From IMG/VR virus record IMGVR_UViG_3300025030_000080, positions 1-64,000 of that record: a stretch of DNA of 64,000 nt. One strand, written 5' to 3'. Every line of letters begins with the position of its first letter. The stretch's first letter is position 1. The notes below the pieces were generated by a model. That model saw nothing but the letters and a program-made list of their open reading frames with translations, made no database searches and had not been told where the DNA came from. The DNA comes from a virus. The translations under genes were made by a program, and so were the position numbers. Below, piece by piece: positions 3,079 through 11,031 of the stretch.

Positions 3079-3312
3079 TTAATCTTTTACTTCTCCAGTT
3101 ACTATTACCCAATCATTTCCTATCATATCTCCTTCAGATACCAAGAGCCTTGATATACTTCCATCTTTCTTTTTAATGGATAAAAATCCGTTGTAAAGAA
3201 AGATGAATACATTAGGATTATCCCACTCCAGTTTGGAAACTCTCCCCCCAAGAATGATATTTTGAATAGCTTGAGAAAAGTTCATCGTTTTTCTCAAAGG
3301 TGTTTGTTTCAT
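3079..3312 (-). CDS. DUF2829 / Tad2-like small protein (possible anti-defence nucleotide sponge)
   Basis: MNFSQAI...GGRVSKLEW...SEGDMIGNDWVIV resembles the DUF2829 pattern MxFxxAL..GxKVxRxxW...DxLAxDW. Confidence 0.55.
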   Translation of the reverse strand: MKQTPLRKTMNFSQAIQNIILGGRVSKLEWDNPNVFIFLYNGFLSIKKKDGSISRLLVSEGDMIGNDWVIVTGEVKD

Positions 3313-3316
3313 TACT

Positions 3317-4519
3317 TTATCCCCTGGGCCTTAGACCACGCCGAGGTCCTGTAGCAGGAGCCGGTGCCGGAGCCGCTGTTGCAGCCGGTCTAGGTGTAGG
3401 TCTAGGGGTTGCCGGGGCTGCTGGAGTAGGACGGGGAGTGGGTGCCGCAGGGGCTTCTGCCTTGGCTGCATCTAATTTATCTTTCTCAGCCGAGCAATCA
3501 TCCCAAATGGGACAAGCAGCACATTCGTTATACTTTTCACAATCCTCCCCAAATACTCCCCCTACGGGACAAGTTTGGGCACCAGCCGTACCCGGAGCCG
3601 CCGTTGTTTGGACTCGCGGAGTTGCACGGGGGGTAGGAGTTGGATTAACAGCCGGGGCAGGTGTCGGAGGTTCCGCAGCAGGAGCAGCTACCCTGCTTCT
3701 CAATCGAGATTCTGCCGGAGGGACTACTACAGGCTGAGGAGGGGGTAATTCCTCTGTGGGTGCTATATCCCCTCCCCCTGTTCCTTGAAAAGCCTGGTTA
3801 ATTTCATCATATGTAGCATAGTTAATGCATTCATCTAATACGAAAGCAGCGTCAAGAACTTCATCAGGAATGACATAATTCCTATCTACAAACTTATGGG
3901 CAAGAAACTCTGAATTCCGTTTGGTCCCCTTACGGGTAAATGAAATGGACTTTCCGGTATCTGGATCAGAGAAAGCTACGTACATATCGGTGGATTTTCC
4001 GGCCCCCCGAGTAGGAGTTTTAGCCAAAGGAGCAATATGCTTTTCCATAAACCAATGGGCGGCATCGAAGATTTGAACTCCCTTACCCTCTTCTTTTTCA
4101 CTATCATAGCAAAGGATGTTATAAATACTTCGACGCTTGGGGGTAAGTTCTTTCACCAATTCTTCATCGTAATCTTCCTGTCTGCGAACTTCTTCACGAT
4201 ATTCGCAGATAGGGCATTGCTTGTTGTAGTTACGGGCCTGGCAAACATATGCATCTTGGTTAACCCCCACTCCGTAATGAACCCAAAGAATTAAAACGTA
4301 GTTGGGTTCCCCCGGTTTGGTATTAGGATCATGGTTTCCTGCGGGAAAGGGAATAATATCAATGATGTGTTCCCCTTCTCCACATTTCCAAAGTTTACTA
4401 GCAAATTCATCTTTGAAAATGTTCTTAAACTGACCAGAATCATCTCTTTTCTCATACGATTCTTGAGTCTTTCTTGCAAGGGCTTCCTTCATCGCTGCCC
4501 TTCGATCAAGATTTGCCAT
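3317..4519 (-). CDS. gp32-like single-stranded DNA-binding protein with Pro/Ala-rich tail and Cys-rich motif
   Basis: IDIIPF, VHYGVG...CQARNYNKQCPICEY, SDPDTGKSISFTRKG; start placed at MANLDRR (4519) behind a GGAGGAGGG RBS. Confidence 0.75.
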   Translation of the reverse strand: MANLDRRAAMKEALARKTQESYEKRDDSGQFKNIFKDEFASKLWKCGEGEHIIDIIPFPAGNHDPNTKPGEPNYVLILWVHYGVGVNQDAYVCQARNYNKQCPICEYREEVRRQEDYDEELVKELTPKRRSIYNILCYDSEKEEGKGVQIFDAAHWFMEKHIAPLAKTPTRGAGKSTDMYVAFSDPDTGKSISFTRKGTKRNSEFLAHKFVDRNYVIPDEVLDAAFVLDECINYATYDEINQAFQGTGGGDIAPTEELPPPQPVVVPPAESRLRSRVAAPAAEPPTPAPAVNPTPTPRATPRVQTTAAPGTAGAQTCPVGGVFGEDCEKYNECAACPIWDDCSAEKDKLDAAKAEAPAAPTPRPTPAAPATPRPTPRPAATAAPAPAPATGPRRGLRPRG

Positions 4520-4715: not shown

Positions 4716-5209
4716 TCGACTCTCTTTCTGATCCGAAGGAGAGACTTTTGATGTTCCGTAGCATCATCGGCTAATTTTCCTATGCCTTCATTATTTAATT
4801 TAACTTCGGAAAAGTAGCCTGAAATATATAATGCTACCAGTTTCTCCAACATGGATCTACGTTGGTCTAGTGCTTCTTTCGCCGCACTATAAATATTGAC
4901 GGCGTATTGAGCATCTGAAACGGCCTTCTCTGCTTGATTTACCTCCTCATTGGATTCTAATGCAGCATTAATAGATCCTTCAGTAACTTTATCAATTCCG
5001 TATTCTCCAGGACGTGACCTGATGTCAATATTCGTATTAGCTTTAACGACTGAAGTTTTACGTTTGGCTTCATCTCTGACTCTGACAGCCTCAGCATATT
5101 CTACTGACCATTTCATAAAACGCCTTGGCTGGTCGAGGCAAGCGGTGGATAAATCATTTTTATCAATTTCTAAATCTTGTTCAATTTCGGTGATTTCTAT
5201 ATCAGCCAT
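4712..5209 (-). CDS. UvsY-like recombination mediator
   Basis: DLEIDKNDL...KVTEGSI helical pattern; lies next to SSB and near recA. Confidence 0.6.
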   Translation of the reverse strand: MADIEITEIEQDLEIDKNDLSTACLDQPRRFMKWSVEYAEAVRVRDEAKRKTSVVKANTNIDIRSRPGEYGIDKVTEGSINAALESNEEVNQAEKAVSDAQYAVNIYSAAKEALDQRRSMLEKLVALYISGYFSEVKLNNEGIGKLADDATEHQKSLLRIRKRVE

Positions 5210-5398
5210 TTTTTCCTCCCAACATATTGGTAAAAATATTTTTATACAATTCTTTCATACTTTCGGCAGCTAAAGTACTTTGTAATAAAGAAGCCGTGGA
5301 TTGAAGTACGGCTATCTTTTCTGCTATATCAAATTCATTCAAATCTTGAAGATTAATAAGGATTTTTGCCACTCCTTCATTTATTTTTATAATATTCA

Positions 5399-7372
5399 TT
5401 AAATTAAAGTTGATAAATATACGGAGCTTATAAGTCCAGCTTTTCCGCAATCATAATAATTATTTGAGAATTCTGATATAAGCTGAGCTACTCTCTTACC
5501 GTTATCATGATTTCCATTTATAAGAACAGAAGAAAGATAACCTAAGATTGCACGTCTAACACTTTCTGGCTCCTGTTCGATATTTTTAAGCATAATTGAT
5601 AATTCTTTCCAACGAGCCGGACCTGGCTCCTTAGCCATAATCTTACGACAAAGCTCTATGATGGTCGTTTCATCAGGAGTATTTTCATTAATAGCTTCAA
5701 GCTGTTTTTCTTCTTCTTTAATATCAATAATTTGGTCTAGAATAACTAGTGCTTTTCTAGCACATCCTTCTGCGGAAAATAAAATAGCATTTTTCACTTT
5801 TTCGGATAATTGAACCCCTTCGGATTCCAAAATCCAATTTACTAATGATATCATATCATGTTTACGAAGGGGGGATACGGTATATATGGTGGATCTAGTT
5901 TTTATTGTATTTAAAAGTTTTTCTGGCTCAGTTGTACAAAGAATAAAGTAAACCCCCTTTGGGGGTTCCTCTAAAATTTTTAGCATTGCATGTTGGAAAT
6001 CTTTGGTTGCTGTATGACAATTATGGGCCAGAATTCCATTTGCAAAATAAGATGGATGCCCGTCTATTTCTAAATCGTAGAATTCGACATACCCTTGATT
6101 TCTTTCTTTATTAGAAATAATACCTCGGAAAGATTCGTCATTATTTCCTGATTGGTAAATCTCAATACTTTCCACCCCAATTCTTTTAGTTTCTCCTCCT
6201 TCTTTTTGTCTCTCAATATAGGATCTCTCCCATTGTGCCCAGGCCCGTCCACTTCTATCGCTATTTTCAATTTGGTATTTCCTATATCCACTTTGTAGTT
6301 TGGAGGATATCCCAAATTGAGCTCCTTTTTTGAAGAATGTCCTGTAAGGATCACTACTTCTGTTTCCCATCCTAGAGATATTGATAACAAAGTTTGGGGT
6401 TCTGTTATTTTTCCATTCCCTCCCCTTTTCCCCTTCCAAATATGAAGGGTTCCGTTCAATCGTTTGGTAGACATAATTTTTTCCATTATTATTGGGTTTT
6501 GAGAAGGGTTGTTTTCTAACATTCTCAAGGAAGATTCTAATCTCATTCGATCCTTCGTTATTTGAGGAATTTTTTTCCATCCCTCTTTCATCTTTCGTAT
6601 TCTCTCTGGATCTGACTTCGCCTTTTTTATTTGGGGAAGAGACTCCCGGAATAGTGCCACACATCGACGAGAACAAAATCTCCTCGTCCTTTCGGAGAGG
6701 AATTTTATCAAAAAGGGAGCTTGGCACCATTCGCAAAGTTTCGTTTCTTCCATTTGGAAGACCCCCTTGTTTAAGGATGTTCCCCATTATACTACTATCG
6801 AGTCCGAAAGTAAAATATTTTTTAAGATTTTTGGCCGGAACCCACTCTCCAGAGGGGGTAAAAAATAAATGATCTTCGCTGCAAATAATATTACGGCCAT
6901 CATTAAAATTTATTTTTACCACTCTATTTATAGGAACTGTATTTTTGAAGGTATTTTTTACTTTACAAAATCCCCCCATACCTTGTACTTTGTCTCCTAT
7001 TTGAATATTTTCTATTGGTACTATTCCTTTATCGCTGCATATAGTGGTTCCTCTAGCGAAACATTCATCAAGAACTATAACTCTTACATCTCCATATAAA
7101 GGTTCAAACTGGCAACTTGCTATAATATCTCTAGCAGTATCAATCCCTCGCATATCAGAAATATTATGTTCGATATAATCCATATCGTTACAACCTAACA
7201 TTTTAGCGATTATTCTTGCAAGTGTGGTCTTTCCGTTTCCAGAGGGTCCTGAAAATAAAATCGTTTTTGGTTTATCCTCTCTTGCTAAAATTGACTTTAA
7301 ACTTTCTTTGATAGCTTCGTTACCAAAGAATTCCTCCAGTGAGGTGGGCCTGTACGATAGAGAAAGCGGCAA
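5399..7372 (-). CDS. dnaX: DnaX-like clamp loader AAA+ ATPase containing an intein
   Basis: YRPTSLEEFFGN, GPSGNGKTT, Walker B VIVLDE|CH split by the intein, LKILEEPP, TIKTRS. Confidence 0.9.
   Translation of the reverse strand: MPLSLSYRPTSLEEFFGNEAIKESLKSILAREDKPKTILFSGPSGNGKTTLARIIAKMLGCNDMDYIEHNISDMRGIDTARDIIASCQFEPLYGDVRVIVLDECFARGTTICSDKGIVPIENIQIGDKVQGMGGFCKVKNTFKNTVPINRVVKINFNDGRNIICSEDHLFFTPSGEWVPAKNLKKYFTFGLDSSIMGNILKQGGLPNGRNETLRMVPSSLFDKIPLRKDEEILFSSMCGTIPGVSSPNKKGEVRSRENTKDERGMEKNSSNNEGSNEIRIFLENVRKQPFSKPNNNGKNYVYQTIERNPSYLEGEKGREWKNNRTPNFVINISRMGNRSSDPYRTFFKKGAQFGISSKLQSGYRKYQIENSDRSGRAWAQWERSYIERQKEGGETKRIGVESIEIYQSGNNDESFRGIISNKERNQGYVEFYDLEIDGHPSYFANGILAHNCHTATKDFQHAMLKILEEPPKGVYFILCTTEPEKLLNTIKTRSTIYTVSPLRKHDMISLVNWILESEGVQLSEKVKNAILFSAEGCARKALVILDQIIDIKEEEKQLEAINENTPDETTIIELCRKIMAKEPGPARWKELSIMLKNIEQEPESVRRAILGYLSSVLINGNHDNGKRVAQLISEFSNNYYDCGKAGLISSVYLSTLI
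6070..6753 (-). CDS. DUF559/Vsr-like endonuclease nested out of frame inside the DnaX intein
   Basis: CEWC...FCSRRC zinc motif; YKVDIG...KIAIEVDGPGH...RDKKKEEKLKELGWKVLRFTN; AAGGGGG RBS upstream. Confidence 0.85.
   Translation of the reverse strand: MEETKLCEWCQAPFLIKFLSERTRRFCSRRCVALFRESLPQIKKAKSDPERIRKMKEGWKKIPQITKDRMRLESSLRMLENNPSQNPIIMEKIMSTKRLNGTLHIWKGKRGGNGKITEPQTLLSISLGWETEVVILTGHSSKKELNLGYPPNYKVDIGNTKLKIAIEVDGPGHNGRDPILRDKKKEEKLKELGWKVLRFTNQEIMTNLSEVLFLIKKEIKGMSNSTI
6786..6814 (-). promoter_or_regulatory. sigma70-like promoter inside the intein, upstream of the nested endonuclease
   Basis: TTTACT-17 nt-TATAAT, about 33 nt upstream of the ATG at 6753. Confidence 0.55.
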
Positions 7373-7389
7373 GGTATCTCCTCCTATCT

Positions 7390-7416
7390 ATTCTACAAGA
7401 AATTAGGGTAAATCAG
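7390..7416 (-). promoter_or_regulatory. phage promoter-like motif, copy 1 (upstream of dnaX)
   Basis: CTGATT-N15(ending TCTTG)-TAGAAT; same architecture at 24251, 28979 and 48404. Confidence 0.5.
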
Positions 7417-7419
7417 GTT

Positions 7420-10400
7420 TTACTCCTCTGAATAATCTTTTTTCGTATGCCATGGACCGTCTATCTCCGTTACACTTATCTCTGATATTAATGGAATACA
7501 TATCCATGGATTATTTTTCAATATGTCCTCAGTCATAACTCTTTTGGTAGTATTTGCTATATATTTTAATTCATCTGGATGAATATCTCCTAAAATTTCG
7601 TCGTGAATTTCTCCTATCCATTTAGATTTCCATTCTTCTTTTATACGAAGATCATTGAGTCTATTACAAGATTCCAATAGGCAGTGAAACGCTGTTCCCT
7701 GAATAACAGTATTTATGATCTCATTCTTCTTCAAGAATCCCCTTCTGCGGAATCCATGCATCATTTCTACATAACCATTTCTTTTGTATGAATTAATTAA
7801 TTCTTCTTGAAATTTCTTTACCCCTTTATACTTTTTCCAAAATTCTTGTTCTGCCTTTTGAACCCTCATCATAGGTAGATCATGGTATCCCCTACTAACT
7901 AAGTCAGCATGTATATTCTTGAAATATGATCCGTAAAATTCTGCAAATACAAAAGCATTTTTGGCATCAAATCTATGTGTTTTAGCGTCAAATCCAGATA
8001 GTTGTAAAAAATCTGACCACTCTTGGTGTATATCTGCTCCTTGTTCTCTCTCTTTCATTAAAACTTTATCTTTTGAATAGCATGCTATAATTCCTACTTC
8101 ATGACCTCCGTAATCCGCAGCCAATATGATATTTCCAGGAGAAGGAATCATTCCCCCTCTTACCATAATCATAGCTTCTTTATCTCTTTTGGGAATGTTC
8201 TGAAGATTAGGCGAATCAGAGTTATGAACGCATATTTCGTTAGCTATAAAATTTGAAAATTCCTCTACTTGGATATCATAAACTTCCGAAAATAAATTAA
8301 TATCTTCTATTTTGATTATAATATGATTTTTGGTAGTAAAAGAGCCAAATTGATTCCCCCATTTTCTTTGATAATATACCCCGTAAATTTTTGATAATCT
8401 TTGAGTTTTATAATAATTAAATCCTAATAATTCTATAGCTGCACTAGGTCCTTGTTTTAATATATTTATCAATTTATTTTTACTTATAAATTTCCCATTT
8501 CTATCCCACCTAGATTTTACCACAAATAAATCAATTTTTTCTAATTTAGAATGGTATTTAAAAGTACTAAAATCAAATTCTTTTCTACCCGTTACTACTC
8601 CTTTTCCTATGACCAGTAGTTTTAGTAATTGGTACCTACTTATTTTTTTATAATTATGATTTTCCTTTCCAATTTTATATGTTATTTTACCTTCTTTATG
8701 TAATTTTTTCATGGTAATAGTTCCACGCAAACGAAGGGTTTCCTTTGGTACTTTATTCATATGTAGTGCACAATGGGAATTTTTAGTGCGCTTTTCCAAG
8801 TTATTCGGAATATTGTTAAAATGATTTTCATCTTTATGATGAACAATATCTCCTAATTCTAACTTTTCTATTAATTGATCATATACTAGTACTTGATCTG
8901 CAATAGGAATATTTCCTGTAAAATAAACTCTATCGTCCCCTGTAGTTCTACCCATAGACAACACGCTAAATTTGGGAGATTTTTTAGATTGATTCGCTCC
9001 TCGTAAATCAAATTTTAATAAATTTTGGGCTTCTACATATTTTCCACTAACAGTTCTTACCAAATGCTCAGGGGTTAGATCTAAATACCCCCTTTTTTTC
9101 CATTTTTGACCCGATTGCCAATGAATTCTTATTACTTTTTTGACTCCAGTTTTCCCCGCCCAAAGAACTTTTCTTATGGCTGGTTTTAAATTATTATCAT
9201 AACAATAGACAAAATCTCCTTCTTTGATATCTTCTATAGGAATTCCTTTAGAAAATTTTGATACATCCCGAACTACTTCAATTATTGTTCCTTTAGCTAT
9301 GCAACTACTGCGGTAGGTCCTCACTAAATGTAAATTAAAATTAGAATGTAATTTTTTATCAACTTGTAATTCTAATATTCCGTCAATATATGTAGTTTTT
9401 AATTTATCTAATTGTCTCTTTTTAACCAAGTTTTTAGCAAAGGGAAGATCCAAACTTTCCAAAACATCCTTATCCACAGACTCATTATCTTTTTCAGTTC
9501 TTTTGACCGATTTAATTCCAAGGTAATCAAAAAATAATTTTTTCAAATCGTCTGGGGAACCTAAATTTATATCTCTCCCCATTTTTGATTTAAAGAGATT
9601 AGCCTCAGATGTACGAAGAAGTTGTTTTTCAAGAAAGGATAATCTCTTTTCCAATTTAACTTGAGTATCTTGGTAGTATTCCGTATTAACCGTAATTCCT
9701 GTCATTTCCATATCAGAGAAAGTTAAAATTCCTTTATGAAATAAATCGTAGGCTCTTGAAGCTGCTTCTGATTCTTTATTACCTTTATCTAAGAAATCCC
9801 ATTGCTTCTCAGCCAATCTCATAGTGAAATAGGCGTCCAGTCCGTTATATTTCAATAGTTCATTTAACGGACATTTTTGCATAGAATTAAATTTAGTTCC
9901 GGGGGCAGCTTTTTTATATTTTGATACTTCTCCTCCGTATTCATATCCCCAATTTATAAATGTTTGAAAGTCTAGCCCGGTAAATTGAGGACGTTCGTCA
10001 ACGATGTGGGAGAATACCATCGTATCCCAATACCATCCTTTTGGTTCTTCTCCGATTATTATTTTACTCCAAGGGTGCTCCATCTGAATATTTTGAGCTA
10101 CTTTTAAAATATCGGGGTCCGAAAGTACCCTGCGCCACGCCGTATTTACCCTATCTAACTGTCCTGATTCCCACGCTCCGGGGTAGTTACCGGGGAAGGA
10201 ATAGGCTAGATCCTCCCCGTAAATAGCGACAGCCGTAGACACAATAGAGTGTCCGGGGAAGTAGGGACGAATTCCCGTAGTTTCATAGTCAAAGGCTATC
10301 GTAGGTTTTTGATCTTTAATAGTTTTTAATAAATTTAAAACTTCATCTACGTTGGTCAAGCATTTTATTTTTTGGGAATAATCTATTTCTTCTATATCAG

Positions 10401-11031
10401 GAAGATTCGAGTTTATTTGTTCCATTGCCCATTTGAGATCTAGTTTAAAAATAGATTCTGCATCTGGATTTCTAATAACAAATGAAGGATGGTAAAGGGG
10501 AATAATCCAAGCCTTTATTTGAACGTCGGGAATACAAAGTTTTCTCCAACGTCCGATAGATAAATTGGTAGAAATTGGTTGAGTTCTATTCATGAAAAAC
10601 GCTTCTACTGCTTTTGCCCCAAAAAGTATGATGTATTTTGGTTGGTATTTCTGAATAGCGGAACGCCACATAAATTCACACGCTTTTAATTCCCTAGTGG
10701 TTGGAGTTCGATTGGTTCCCTTATCCGTAGCAGTACGACAAGCAACAGCATTAGTTTTCCAGAAATCTCTATCTAAATCGTACCCCATAGTCCGAAAACA
10801 TTTACGAAGAAAATGGCCAGTATCACCCACGAAAGCGTTATTTAACTTATCCTCTGTTTCACCAGGAGCCTCCCCTATTATTAAAGTTCTGAGTAACCCT
10901 TCCCCCGTGGGGGGAATCTTAGGGGATAAAACTTTTTTATGCAATCCGCACGCATCGCAGCCTATGGCACCTCGGATTGTTTTTGGTTGAACACTTTTAG
11001 ATTGTGTAGGTAGGTCGAAGAATCCGTTCAT
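7420..11031 (-). CDS. polA: family A DNA polymerase with N-terminal family-4 uracil-DNA glycosylase, 3'-5' exonuclease and intein
   Basis: UDG motifs CDAC, GEAPG, FVG, YHPS; exonuclease motifs FDYETTG, YNGLD; polymerase motifs PNLQNIP, AADY, FYGS, IQGTA, EIHDEI. Confidence 0.93.
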   Translation of the reverse strand: MNGFFDLPTQSKSVQPKTIRGAIGCDACGLHKKVLSPKIPPTGEGLLRTLIIGEAPGETEDKLNNAFVGDTGHFLRKCFRTMGYDLDRDFWKTNAVACRTATDKGTNRTPTTRELKACEFMWRSAIQKYQPKYIILFGAKAVEAFFMNRTQPISTNLSIGRWRKLCIPDVQIKAWIIPLYHPSFVIRNPDAESIFKLDLKWAMEQINSNLPDIEEIDYSQKIKCLTNVDEVLNLLKTIKDQKPTIAFDYETTGIRPYFPGHSIVSTAVAIYGEDLAYSFPGNYPGAWESGQLDRVNTAWRRVLSDPDILKVAQNIQMEHPWSKIIIGEEPKGWYWDTMVFSHIVDERPQFTGLDFQTFINWGYEYGGEVSKYKKAAPGTKFNSMQKCPLNELLKYNGLDAYFTMRLAEKQWDFLDKGNKESEAASRAYDLFHKGILTFSDMEMTGITVNTEYYQDTQVKLEKRLSFLEKQLLRTSEANLFKSKMGRDINLGSPDDLKKLFFDYLGIKSVKRTEKDNESVDKDVLESLDLPFAKNLVKKRQLDKLKTTYIDGILELQVDKKLHSNFNLHLVRTYRSSCIAKGTIIEVVRDVSKFSKGIPIEDIKEGDFVYCYDNNLKPAIRKVLWAGKTGVKKVIRIHWQSGQKWKKRGYLDLTPEHLVRTVSGKYVEAQNLLKFDLRGANQSKKSPKFSVLSMGRTTGDDRVYFTGNIPIADQVLVYDQLIEKLELGDIVHHKDENHFNNIPNNLEKRTKNSHCALHMNKVPKETLRLRGTITMKKLHKEGKITYKIGKENHNYKKISRYQLLKLLVIGKGVVTGRKEFDFSTFKYHSKLEKIDLFVVKSRWDRNGKFISKNKLINILKQGPSAAIELLGFNYYKTQRLSKIYGVYYQRKWGNQFGSFTTKNHIIIKIEDINLFSEVYDIQVEEFSNFIANEICVHNSDSPNLQNIPKRDKEAMIMVRGGMIPSPGNIILAADYGGHEVGIIACYSKDKVLMKEREQGADIHQEWSDFLQLSGFDAKTHRFDAKNAFVFAEFYGSYFKNIHADLVSRGYHDLPMMRVQKAEQEFWKKYKGVKKFQEELINSYKRNGYVEMMHGFRRRGFLKKNEIINTVIQGTAFHCLLESCNRLNDLRIKEEWKSKWIGEIHDEILGDIHPDELKYIANTTKRVMTEDILKNNPWICIPLISEISVTEIDGPWHTKKDYSEE
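8221..9303 (-). mobile_element. intein (361 aa) with in-frame HNH endonuclease in PolA
   Basis: CIAKGT...LTPEHLV...VHHKDENHFNNIPNNL...VYDIQVEEFSNFIANEICVHN|S; removal restores RSSSDSPNLQNIP. Confidence 0.92.

Follow-up and report, generated by a model that had tools for sequence, protein, structure and literature searches.

A putative homing endonuclease gene nested in the +1 frame of phage clamp-loader and helicase inteins

INTRODUCTION

Why an intein gene keeps two reading frames of one strand open over ~680 nucleotides (nt) is the question raised by a clamp-loader gene in IMG/VR virus record IMGVR_UViG_3300025030_000080. The record is 76 kb long and comes from groundwater metagenomes, and its first 64,000 nt, here called the window, were analyzed. 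In the window, an open reading frame (ORF) of 657 amino acids (aa) plus stop at 5399..7372 encodes the precursor of a DnaX/RFC-like AAA+ clamp loader, a 348-aa intein interrupts the clamp loader at 6020..7063, and a second ORF of 227 aa plus stop lies inside the intein gene, in its +1 frame, at 6070..6753. All features of the window described here are on the minus strand. An earlier note, made from the sequence alone, proposed that the second ORF encodes a complete zinc-finger plus DUF559/Vsr-like nuclease and that the splicing blocks of the surrounding intein are intact, and both its coordinates and its account of their content were borne out by ORF and domain matches. We consider it very likely that the locus is a composite selfish element seated in the Walker-B motif of a phage clamp loader, in which a class-1 intein is combined with a separate +1-frame gene for a zinc-ribbon/EDxHD endonuclease, and that it spreads by homing.

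RESULTS

The 348-aa insert is, as judged from its sequence, a class-1 intein for which canonical protein splicing is predicted. The 657-aa ORF matched DNA_pol3_delta2 (E 5e-17), the clamp-loader family phrog_5846 (E 1e-56), and TIGR02397 dnaX_nterm (E 1e-43, a match below TIGR02397's own cutoff), and each of the three matches was cut in two by a match to Pfam Intein_splicing (E 7e-10). The insertion point is the Walker-B site, VLDE|C...HN|CH, inside a DE|CH motif. Cys1 of the intein (TGT, 7063..7061) directly follows VLDE and is invariant in an alignment of 67 inteins. The block B His65 is nearly invariant, and the window has C-S-E-D-H where the consensus is CTxxH, with Ser replacing Thr. The intein ends ...GILAHN|CH, such that His347 and Asn348 are followed by Cys+1; N348 is invariant, and a few relatives have VSN or a +1 Ser. 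Upstream of the intein, the N-extein (103 aa; 7064..7372) runs from the P-loop to Walker B and ends ...RVIVLDE, and downstream, the C-extein (206 aa plus stop; 5399..6019) starts CHTATKDFQHAM.... Without the intein the clamp loader is 309 aa, and intein-less homologs encode a 309-aa ORF from the matching Met.

Structure prediction divided the intein into two confident splicing halves and a disordered middle. The N-terminal (Hint) half comprises residues 1 to 98 (6770..7063) and was modeled with a pLDDT (predicted local distance difference test) score of 95 to 98 over residues 1 to 80 that dropped after residue ~88. The C-terminal half comprises residues 291 to 348 (6020..6193), had a pLDDT of 95 to 98, and was the best-conserved part of the intein (identity, 0.59). 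When the AlphaFold2 models of the Hint halves were compared to known structures with Foldseek, they matched the gp41-1, DnaB, RecA, and DnaE inteins (E 3e-8 to 1e-3), and the best match was the gp41-1 split intein (E 3e-8; 30 to 32% identity). Thus, the insert has the nucleophile, the block B His, the C-terminal HN plus Cys, the Hint fold, and a location at a conserved site that is uninterrupted in homologs. The in-frame linker between the halves (residues ~99 to 290; 6194..6769) is open, but its protein sequence is unconserved, and AlphaFold with 67 sequences gave it a pLDDT of 43 to 58 and nearly no secondary structure. The length of the intein varies across the family from 277 to 440 residues due to variation in the length of the linker.

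What the middle of the intein gene encodes is found in the +1 frame. The nested ORF starts 619 nt after the start of the host gene on the same strand and matched Pfam DUF559 with 46.9 bits over a cutoff of 20.6 (E 2.8e-12). AlphaFold, given a 56-sequence alignment, modeled the protein with a mean pLDDT of 92.2 as a zinc ribbon, a helical region, and an alpha/beta core. The catalytic core (residues ~118 to 227; 6073..6402) contains the composite EDxHD residues E167, D169, H173, and D182, all of which are invariant in the 56 sequences, as are D156 and K185. A sequence profile of the family matched Protein Data Bank (PDB) entries 3hrl (E 4e-13) and 3r3p, the homing endonuclease I-Bth0305I (E 6e-5), and the top Foldseek matches of the model were 3r3p_B, 3hrl, and the Vsr structures 1cw0/1vsr (probability, 0.91 to 1.00; E 3.6e-3 to 0.2). 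We conclude that, by sequence and by predicted fold, the nested ORF is a member of the EDxHD/Vsr-like nucleases of the DUF559 superfamily and a putative homing endonuclease.

The N terminus of the nuclease may contact DNA, as it consists of a zinc ribbon and helices. The ribbon (6661..6735) is formed by Cys7, Cys10, Cys27, and Cys31, with strands at residues 3 to 6 and 13 to 16 of the model. C7 and C10 are invariant, and C27 and C31 are conserved in at least 90% of the nuclease alignment. Profile matches of the ribbon were weak and fell to the YacG, MYM-type, and L24e zinc ribbons, and relatives of the nuclease carry one to four ribbons. We also note an RGGNG loop at residues 110 to 114 (6412-6426), just ahead of the catalytic core, where the model is least confident (pLDDT, ~70). 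G111, N113, and G114 of the loop are invariant or nearly so in the 56 homologs, and the loop is absent from the published EDxHD motif.

How likely both frames are to be open by chance was determined by simulation. Over the 681 nt of the nested ORF, the host frame has no stop codon and the third frame has 27. In 20,000 synonymous shuffles of the nested gene, which left the encoded nuclease and its codon usage unchanged, stops in the host frame numbered 12.0 on average and 3 at minimum, and never 0. The means by which stops are avoided can be read from codon choice. A host-frame stop arises where a nuclease codon that starts with AA, AG, or GA follows a codon that ends in T, and indeed, a T-ending codon preceded 0 of 78 such codons but 45 of the 148 others (30%). 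At the corresponding codons of four ordinary genes from this phage, the T-ending fraction was 33 to 36%; the depletion in the nested gene had a Fisher P of 6e-10. We conclude that the host frame is not open by chance and that selection removes stops from it; the earlier claim that both frames are free of stops therefore reflects a property that is maintained.

Selection on stops need not mean selection on residues. When 69 loci were compared over identical aligned nucleotides, the nuclease frame had an amino acid identity of 0.455, compared with 0.256 for the host frame and 0.270 for the noncoding third frame. As identity in the host frame does not exceed that in the third frame, the middle of the intein shows no amino acid constraint in the host frame. 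In the clamp-loader group, mean identity was 0.55 for the nuclease core, 35% for the host-frame translation of that DNA, and 0.36 to 0.41 for the exteins. Moreover, the entropy of the three codon positions in the overlap was 1.12/0.94/1.52 bits in the nuclease frame, a normal coding pattern like that of the exteins; under a host-frame reading, the lowest variability would fall on position 3. By these comparisons of homologs, selection on amino acids acts on the nuclease frame only. The earlier note had staked its proposal in part on which frame homologs conserve, and the result favors it: the intein-frame middle was unconserved, consistent with its description as off-frame sequence, and the +1 frame was conserved without stops.

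An alternative is that the linker (residues ~99 to 290) is itself functional, perhaps as a disordered region that tunes splicing, and that both frames encode something useful. The host-frame peptide is marginally less hydrophobic than that of synonymous shuffles (0.217 versus 0.232 +/- 0.007; P 0.015), and a few host-frame motifs, LQSGYR and RSG[RW], recur. The recurring motifs, however, are a frame-shifted shadow of nuclease motifs, as LQSGYR is the shifted reading of YKVDIGN. The low pLDDT of the linker (~45 to 54) despite 67 sequences, its varying length, and the failure of its identity to exceed that of the third frame also argue against a function, and we regard this alternative as highly improbable. 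Two folded proteins do appear to share codons at the 3' end of the nested gene, where ~40 codons (6073..6193) encode the final strand and helix of the nuclease in one frame and, in the other, the strands with which the C-terminal splicing half begins. In the last 30 columns of the alignment, all codon positions were less variable than elsewhere (1.03/0.83/1.31 versus 1.14/0.98/1.57 bits), which fits such double duty.

The two-frame layout is not peculiar to the window and was found in more than 100 related loci. A tblastn search of isolate phages with the nested protein matched 40 records. In the three that were examined (Vibrio phages 1.088.O and 159E43-1b and Pseudomonas phage MR14), the match lay in the +1 frame of an annotated helicase coding sequence, and the host gene alone was annotated. 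Among the first 13 loci from IMG/VR, 12 had the +1 nesting, with the host frame fully open in 11 and interrupted by a single stop in one (L009). A profile-based scan of IMG/VR then returned 311 relatives, and the best 80 were checked for nesting. All 80 were nested in the +1 frame with an open nuclease ORF and no host-frame stop across the match, even as the third frame contained 3 to 31 stops per locus and synonymous shuffles predicted 5 to 20 host-frame stops per locus. Finally, bacterial and archaeal assemblies contained 39 full-length relatives, and 36 of them were nested; the other three, and more distant matches to the domain only, were ordinary free-standing DUF559 genes.

What the nested loci share is the site of insertion. 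Junctions located with hidden Markov models of the splicing halves always fell in Walker B/helicase motif II, usually as DE|CF...HN|CH and sometimes as DEAH|C or HN|SS. Of 67 nonredundant host genes, 42 encode clamp loaders, and the remainder encode mostly superfamily 2 (SF2) helicases (SNF2, XPB-like, and others). That the +1 relation is constant is best accounted for by inheritance of a single ancestral layout rather than by convergence, because an insertion, deletion, or stop would break an essential gene.

The breadth of the family also bears on whether the nested ORF is an artifact, either an in-frame endonuclease thrown out of frame by a sequencing or assembly error or the remnant of a decaying gene. 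The sole point in favor of an artifact is that the window is a metagenome assembly. Contigs from three sequencing runs (X2, X6, and X8), however, each span positions 4800 to 8000 of the window entirely with no differences within the contig, and the longest piece from a fourth (X1; 4800-7454) contains the whole gene and is identical. Although the X-run contigs may be the source of the record itself, their identity across runs argues against an assembly frameshift. Moreover, the +1 relation is found in isolate phages (L001-L003) as well as in the 80 best metagenomic loci, and the nuclease frame is free of stops with invariant catalytic residues and a confident model (pLDDT, 92). Thus, the chance of an artifact is practically negligible. 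An assembly frameshift and a decayed endonuclease were both ruled out by the nesting in 80 of 80 loci, the codon-position pattern, and the identities in the three frames.

How the nuclease is made is suggested by signals at its start. The Shine-Dalgarno-like sequence AAGGGGG (6762..6768) precedes the nested ATG (6753..6751) by 8 nt, and it had been pointed out in the earlier note. A comparable motif (GGAG, GAGG, or GGGG 5 to 14 nt before the ATG) was present in 11 of 12 loci but ahead of only 7.4% of all ATGs there. That the nested gene has its own translation start, a conserved Shine-Dalgarno motif plus ATG predicted from sequence, is a well-founded inference. Alternatively, programmed ribosomal frameshifting might produce the nuclease, either as a fusion to the N-extein and N-intein or, after two shifts, as an in-frame domain. 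Indeed, in several loci the +1 frame extends without a stop for tens of codons ahead of the ATG taken as the start, and one locus (L008) has no Shine-Dalgarno motif. Nonetheless, the ATG stands only a few codons ahead of the first CxxC, with a Shine-Dalgarno motif, in the other 11 loci; two shifts at exact positions would be required for an in-frame domain; and the stop codon of the nuclease is inside the C-terminal splicing half such that a fusion could not read past it. On these three grounds, frameshifting is very unlikely. We note that the nested ATG can be drawn in a hairpin (UCUUCC-AAAU-GGAAGA; 6740-6775) that recalls the hairpins that sequester the ribosome-binding sites of free-standing phage endonuclease genes, but the hairpin was not significant (z, -1.84), as 14 of 200 shuffles folded equally well.

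Whether the element moves was explored by comparing alleles with and without the intein. The closest relatives of the window clamp loader are on seven IMG/VR contigs, with exteins that are 80% identical in amino acids and 73% identical in nucleotides, and all seven have an uninterrupted 309-aa gene that reads ...ILNE|CHKST... at the insertion site. Intein-less alleles of 309 aa and ~305 aa occur in L095-L103, and more distant intein-less relatives have DEVH at the site. As an aside, the ILNECH allele of L096:2671-3618 and six identical loci (L095, L097-L100, and L103) has Asn at Walker B in place of the Asp of the window and most relatives (LDE|CH), a residue that is unusual for a catalytic clamp-loader subunit and that could in principle change the target of the endonuclease.

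Movement between kinds of host gene was supported by phylogeny. Sequences clustered by host type in a tree of the nuclease core built by maximum likelihood, and its well-supported branches require at least three changes of host type. Two phage genomes contain two copies each, L034/L044 on IMGVR_UViG_3300044800_000040 and L029/L081 on IMGVR_UViG_3300033144_006696. In each genome, one element is in a clamp loader and the other is in an SF2 helicase (SNF2-like or XPB-like), and the two nucleases are near sisters with 54 to 60% identity even as the exteins are only 27 to 32% identical. Together, the host-type changes and the near-sister pairs indicate repeated movement of the intein-plus-nuclease unit between genes that share DE|CH.

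An intact nuclease under selection might instead have been co-opted for phage exclusion, degradation of host DNA, or repair and recombination, with the intein serving as its fixed address. DUF559 proteins are mostly not homing enzymes, and many bacterial copies are free-standing. The element also resides in a recombination and replication module with UvsY-like and gp32-like genes, and the nuclease core is more conserved than the exteins in the clamp-loader group (0.55 versus 0.36 to 0.41). Co-option is difficult to reconcile, however, with intein-less alleles in the closest relatives, with repeated movement between host genes that share DE|CH, and with the physical tie to a self-splicing element in all of the best 80 of 311 IMG/VR relatives. 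Moreover, the solved enzyme to which the nuclease matches by both profile and fold, I-Bth0305I, is a homing enzyme. Thus, co-option is unlikely, and we favor homing.

The clamp-loader gene belongs to a minus-strand replication and recombination module of four genes: gp32-like, UvsY-like, the clamp loader, and a family A DNA polymerase fused to a uracil-DNA glycosylase (UDG). A blastn search of a phage collection with the clamp-loader gene gave no match. The polymerase gene (7420-11031; 1,203 aa) contains an intein of its own, with an Intein_splicing match at residues 599 to 937. The middle of the polymerase intein is in frame and holds an HNH-like stretch rich in His and Asn, and no nested ORF of at least 50 aa was seen on the strand of the polymerase gene. 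Finally, the C-extein contains a terminator-like hairpin (GAACCCCCAAAGGGGGTTT) with a T-rich tail at 5950-5968, ~50 nt past the end of the intein. The hairpin overlaps the codons of the conserved EEPPKGV motif and is probably a coincidence of coding.

DISCUSSION

How the composite element would function can be outlined as follows. Ribosomes would read the host frame straight through the linker, the two Hint halves would associate with the ~190-residue unstructured linker looped out, and protein splicing would rebuild VLDE-CH at Walker B and free the 309-aa clamp loader. The nuclease would be translated on its own, from an internal start with a Shine-Dalgarno sequence and ATG of its own, probably at a low level because this start is inside a translated ORF. 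During co-infection, the nuclease would cut intein-less clamp-loader alleles near the DE|CH codons, and recombinational repair would copy the intein and the nuclease gene into the cut allele. Occasionally, the element may land in an SF2 helicase gene, at a similar DE|CH motif. As for its origin, it is plausible that a free-standing endonuclease gene invaded a mini-intein, as the earlier note supposed.

Several observations weigh against homing by such an element. Its expression, splicing, and cleavage are each predicted from sequence. The Foldseek E values of the nuclease are modest (3.6e-3) because only its C-terminal half matches. The enrichment of Shine-Dalgarno motifs has a nominal P of 4e-12 that is too optimistic, as the nested starts were picked by the analyst, and L008 is the one locus of 12 in which a motif could not be recognized. 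The internal promoter proposed in the earlier note, TTTACT-17-TATAAT, is indeed present (6786..6814; 10 of 12 matches) but is no better than expected by chance, as the region contains 5 promoter-like sites and shuffles contain 7.0 +/- 2.3; thus, an internal promoter is unsupported. The sole pair of very close relatives, L048 and L049, differs at 15 positions in the overlap and fails to separate the frames, with 4 synonymous and 11 nonsynonymous differences in one frame versus 5 and 10 in the other. Finally, contigs of four groundwater or soil runs, which may be the source samples, contained no intein-less allele of the same phage, no joint that skipped the intein, and no variant of the intein.

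Out-of-frame endonucleases in inteins are not unprecedented. Later papers cite Gorbalenya (1998) for an out-of-frame endonuclease design in the Synechocystis DnaX intein, and a preprint by Phillips et al. (2026) describes a +2 LAGLIDADG endonuclease in cyanobacterial dnaX inteins. The likeness to the latter is extensive: the host is a DnaX-type clamp loader, the endonuclease ORF overlaps the center of the intein on the same strand but out of frame, the in-frame middle is predicted to be disordered, purifying selection acts on the endonuclease frame only, and intein-less alleles coexist. Phillips et al. likewise propose secondary invasion of a mini-intein. Their endonuclease, however, is LAGLIDADG-like, in the +2 frame, and cellular, whereas the one here has a zinc ribbon and a DUF559/EDxHD core, is in the +1 frame, and is phage borne.

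Phages provide further parallels. Gosselin, Arsenault, and Gogarten (bioRxiv 10.1101/2025.01.02.630785) reported actinobacteriophage inteins with antisense VSR-like and frame-3 endonuclease VII-like endonucleases in genes for DNA polymerase, minor capsid, terminase, and thymidylate synthase, and they noted that annotation pipelines miss such inteins. As in the window, those are phage inteins with an endonuclease outside the intein frame and an unstructured in-frame center, but the types they report do not include a sense-strand +1 VSR-like/DUF559 gene in a Walker-B intein of a clamp loader or helicase. Arsenault et al. (2025; PMC11855218) described a hidden out-of-frame HNH endonuclease in an insertion in a phage methylase (the "ShiLan domain"). 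There too, an endonuclease gene occupies another frame of an insertion that is kept open in the host frame, but the ShiLan insertion has no splicing domains, and the nuclease is HNH.

The nuclease itself is related to I-Bth0305I (PDB 3r3p), the prototype of the EDxHD homing endonucleases, which is encoded in a recA group I intron (Taylor et al. 2011; PMC3239194). Both have a Vsr-like fold, the E-D-x-H-D residues, and a multidomain organization with an N-terminal DNA-binding region, which is a candidate one in the nested protein, and both are phage borne and linked to a self-splicing element. I-Bth0305I, however, has NUMOD-like N-terminal motifs and resides in an intron, whereas the nested nuclease has zinc ribbons and the invariant RGGNG loop, is closer to DUF559 (3hrl), and resides in an intein. 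Full-text literature searches found no description of a sense-strand +1 DUF559/EDxHD gene in the Walker-B inteins of clamp loaders or helicases. We conclude that the family is a variant of a general design that is already published. Since the design has precedent, the value of the family lies in its scale, its mechanism, and its evolutionary links rather than in a new principle.

The locus is a clean natural case of long (~680 nt) dual coding on one strand, and its selective logic can be read directly: one frame encodes an enzyme, and the other need merely avoid stops. The family may represent an abundant class of phage homing endonucleases that is largely invisible in databases because gene callers and GenBank annotate the host gene only. 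The earlier note anticipated as much, and both standard gene callers and the GenBank records indeed passed over the nested gene. Inteins of this type may also be mistaken for decaying inteins or mini-inteins. The family also offers a tractable case of a mobile element that switches host genes by way of a motif common to different protein families, and it connects contiguous inteins, free-standing endonuclease genes, and the biotechnologically interesting split inteins such as gp41-1.

How the family relates to split inteins deserves comment. The "fractured genes" of Dassa et al. (2009; PMC2677866), which include gp41-1, carry a free-standing Vsr-like or GIY-YIG endonuclease gene flanked by the two halves of a split intein. 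The nuclease here is of the same Vsr-like superfamily, and in both cases the hosts are replication genes of environmental phages. The 3' end of the endonuclease gene overlaps the coding sequence of the C-terminal intein by 6 to 69 bp in fractured genes and by ~120 bp (~40 codons) here. Fractured genes consist of two host ORFs and splice in trans, whereas in the window the host frame is continuous over 657 codons and the intein is contiguous. Perhaps, the family is the contiguous counterpart of the fractured-gene split inteins, and possibly their evolutionary source or sink, with the host gene kept whole solely by selection against stops in a meaningless 190-codon linker. In addition, the element appears to move ectopically from one P-loop NTPase gene to another, unrelated one (clamp loaders and SF2 helicases), even inside a single phage genome, presumably because its nuclease recognizes the DNA encoding the Walker-B DE|CH. 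We offer this combined proposal tentatively and think it has the poorer side of the odds. If it is true, a single nonsense mutation would turn a cis-splicing intein into a trans-splicing pair.

Only one relative, L009, may be an intermediate with fractured genes. The locus (L009:1980-4121; IMGVR_UViG_3300007537_000440) likewise carries the clamp loader, the intein, and the nested nuclease, and a single in-frame TAG is found at 2937-2939 in the linker. The TAG divides the gene, such that the N part spans 1980-2939 and the C part is open from 2940, with the next ATG at 3177 and a TTG at 3360; no clear Shine-Dalgarno motif was seen ahead of either start. The TAG may be a sequencing error, the mark of a fresh pseudogene, a read-through (recoded) stop, or a natural transition from cis to trans splicing. 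Finally, we note that free-standing relatives of the nuclease exist in L013, L137, L139, and L140. The relative in L013 (L013:2770-3324) is 184 aa, is found without a zinc ribbon or an intein, and starts 22 nt before the stop codon of an SNF2-like helicase gene.

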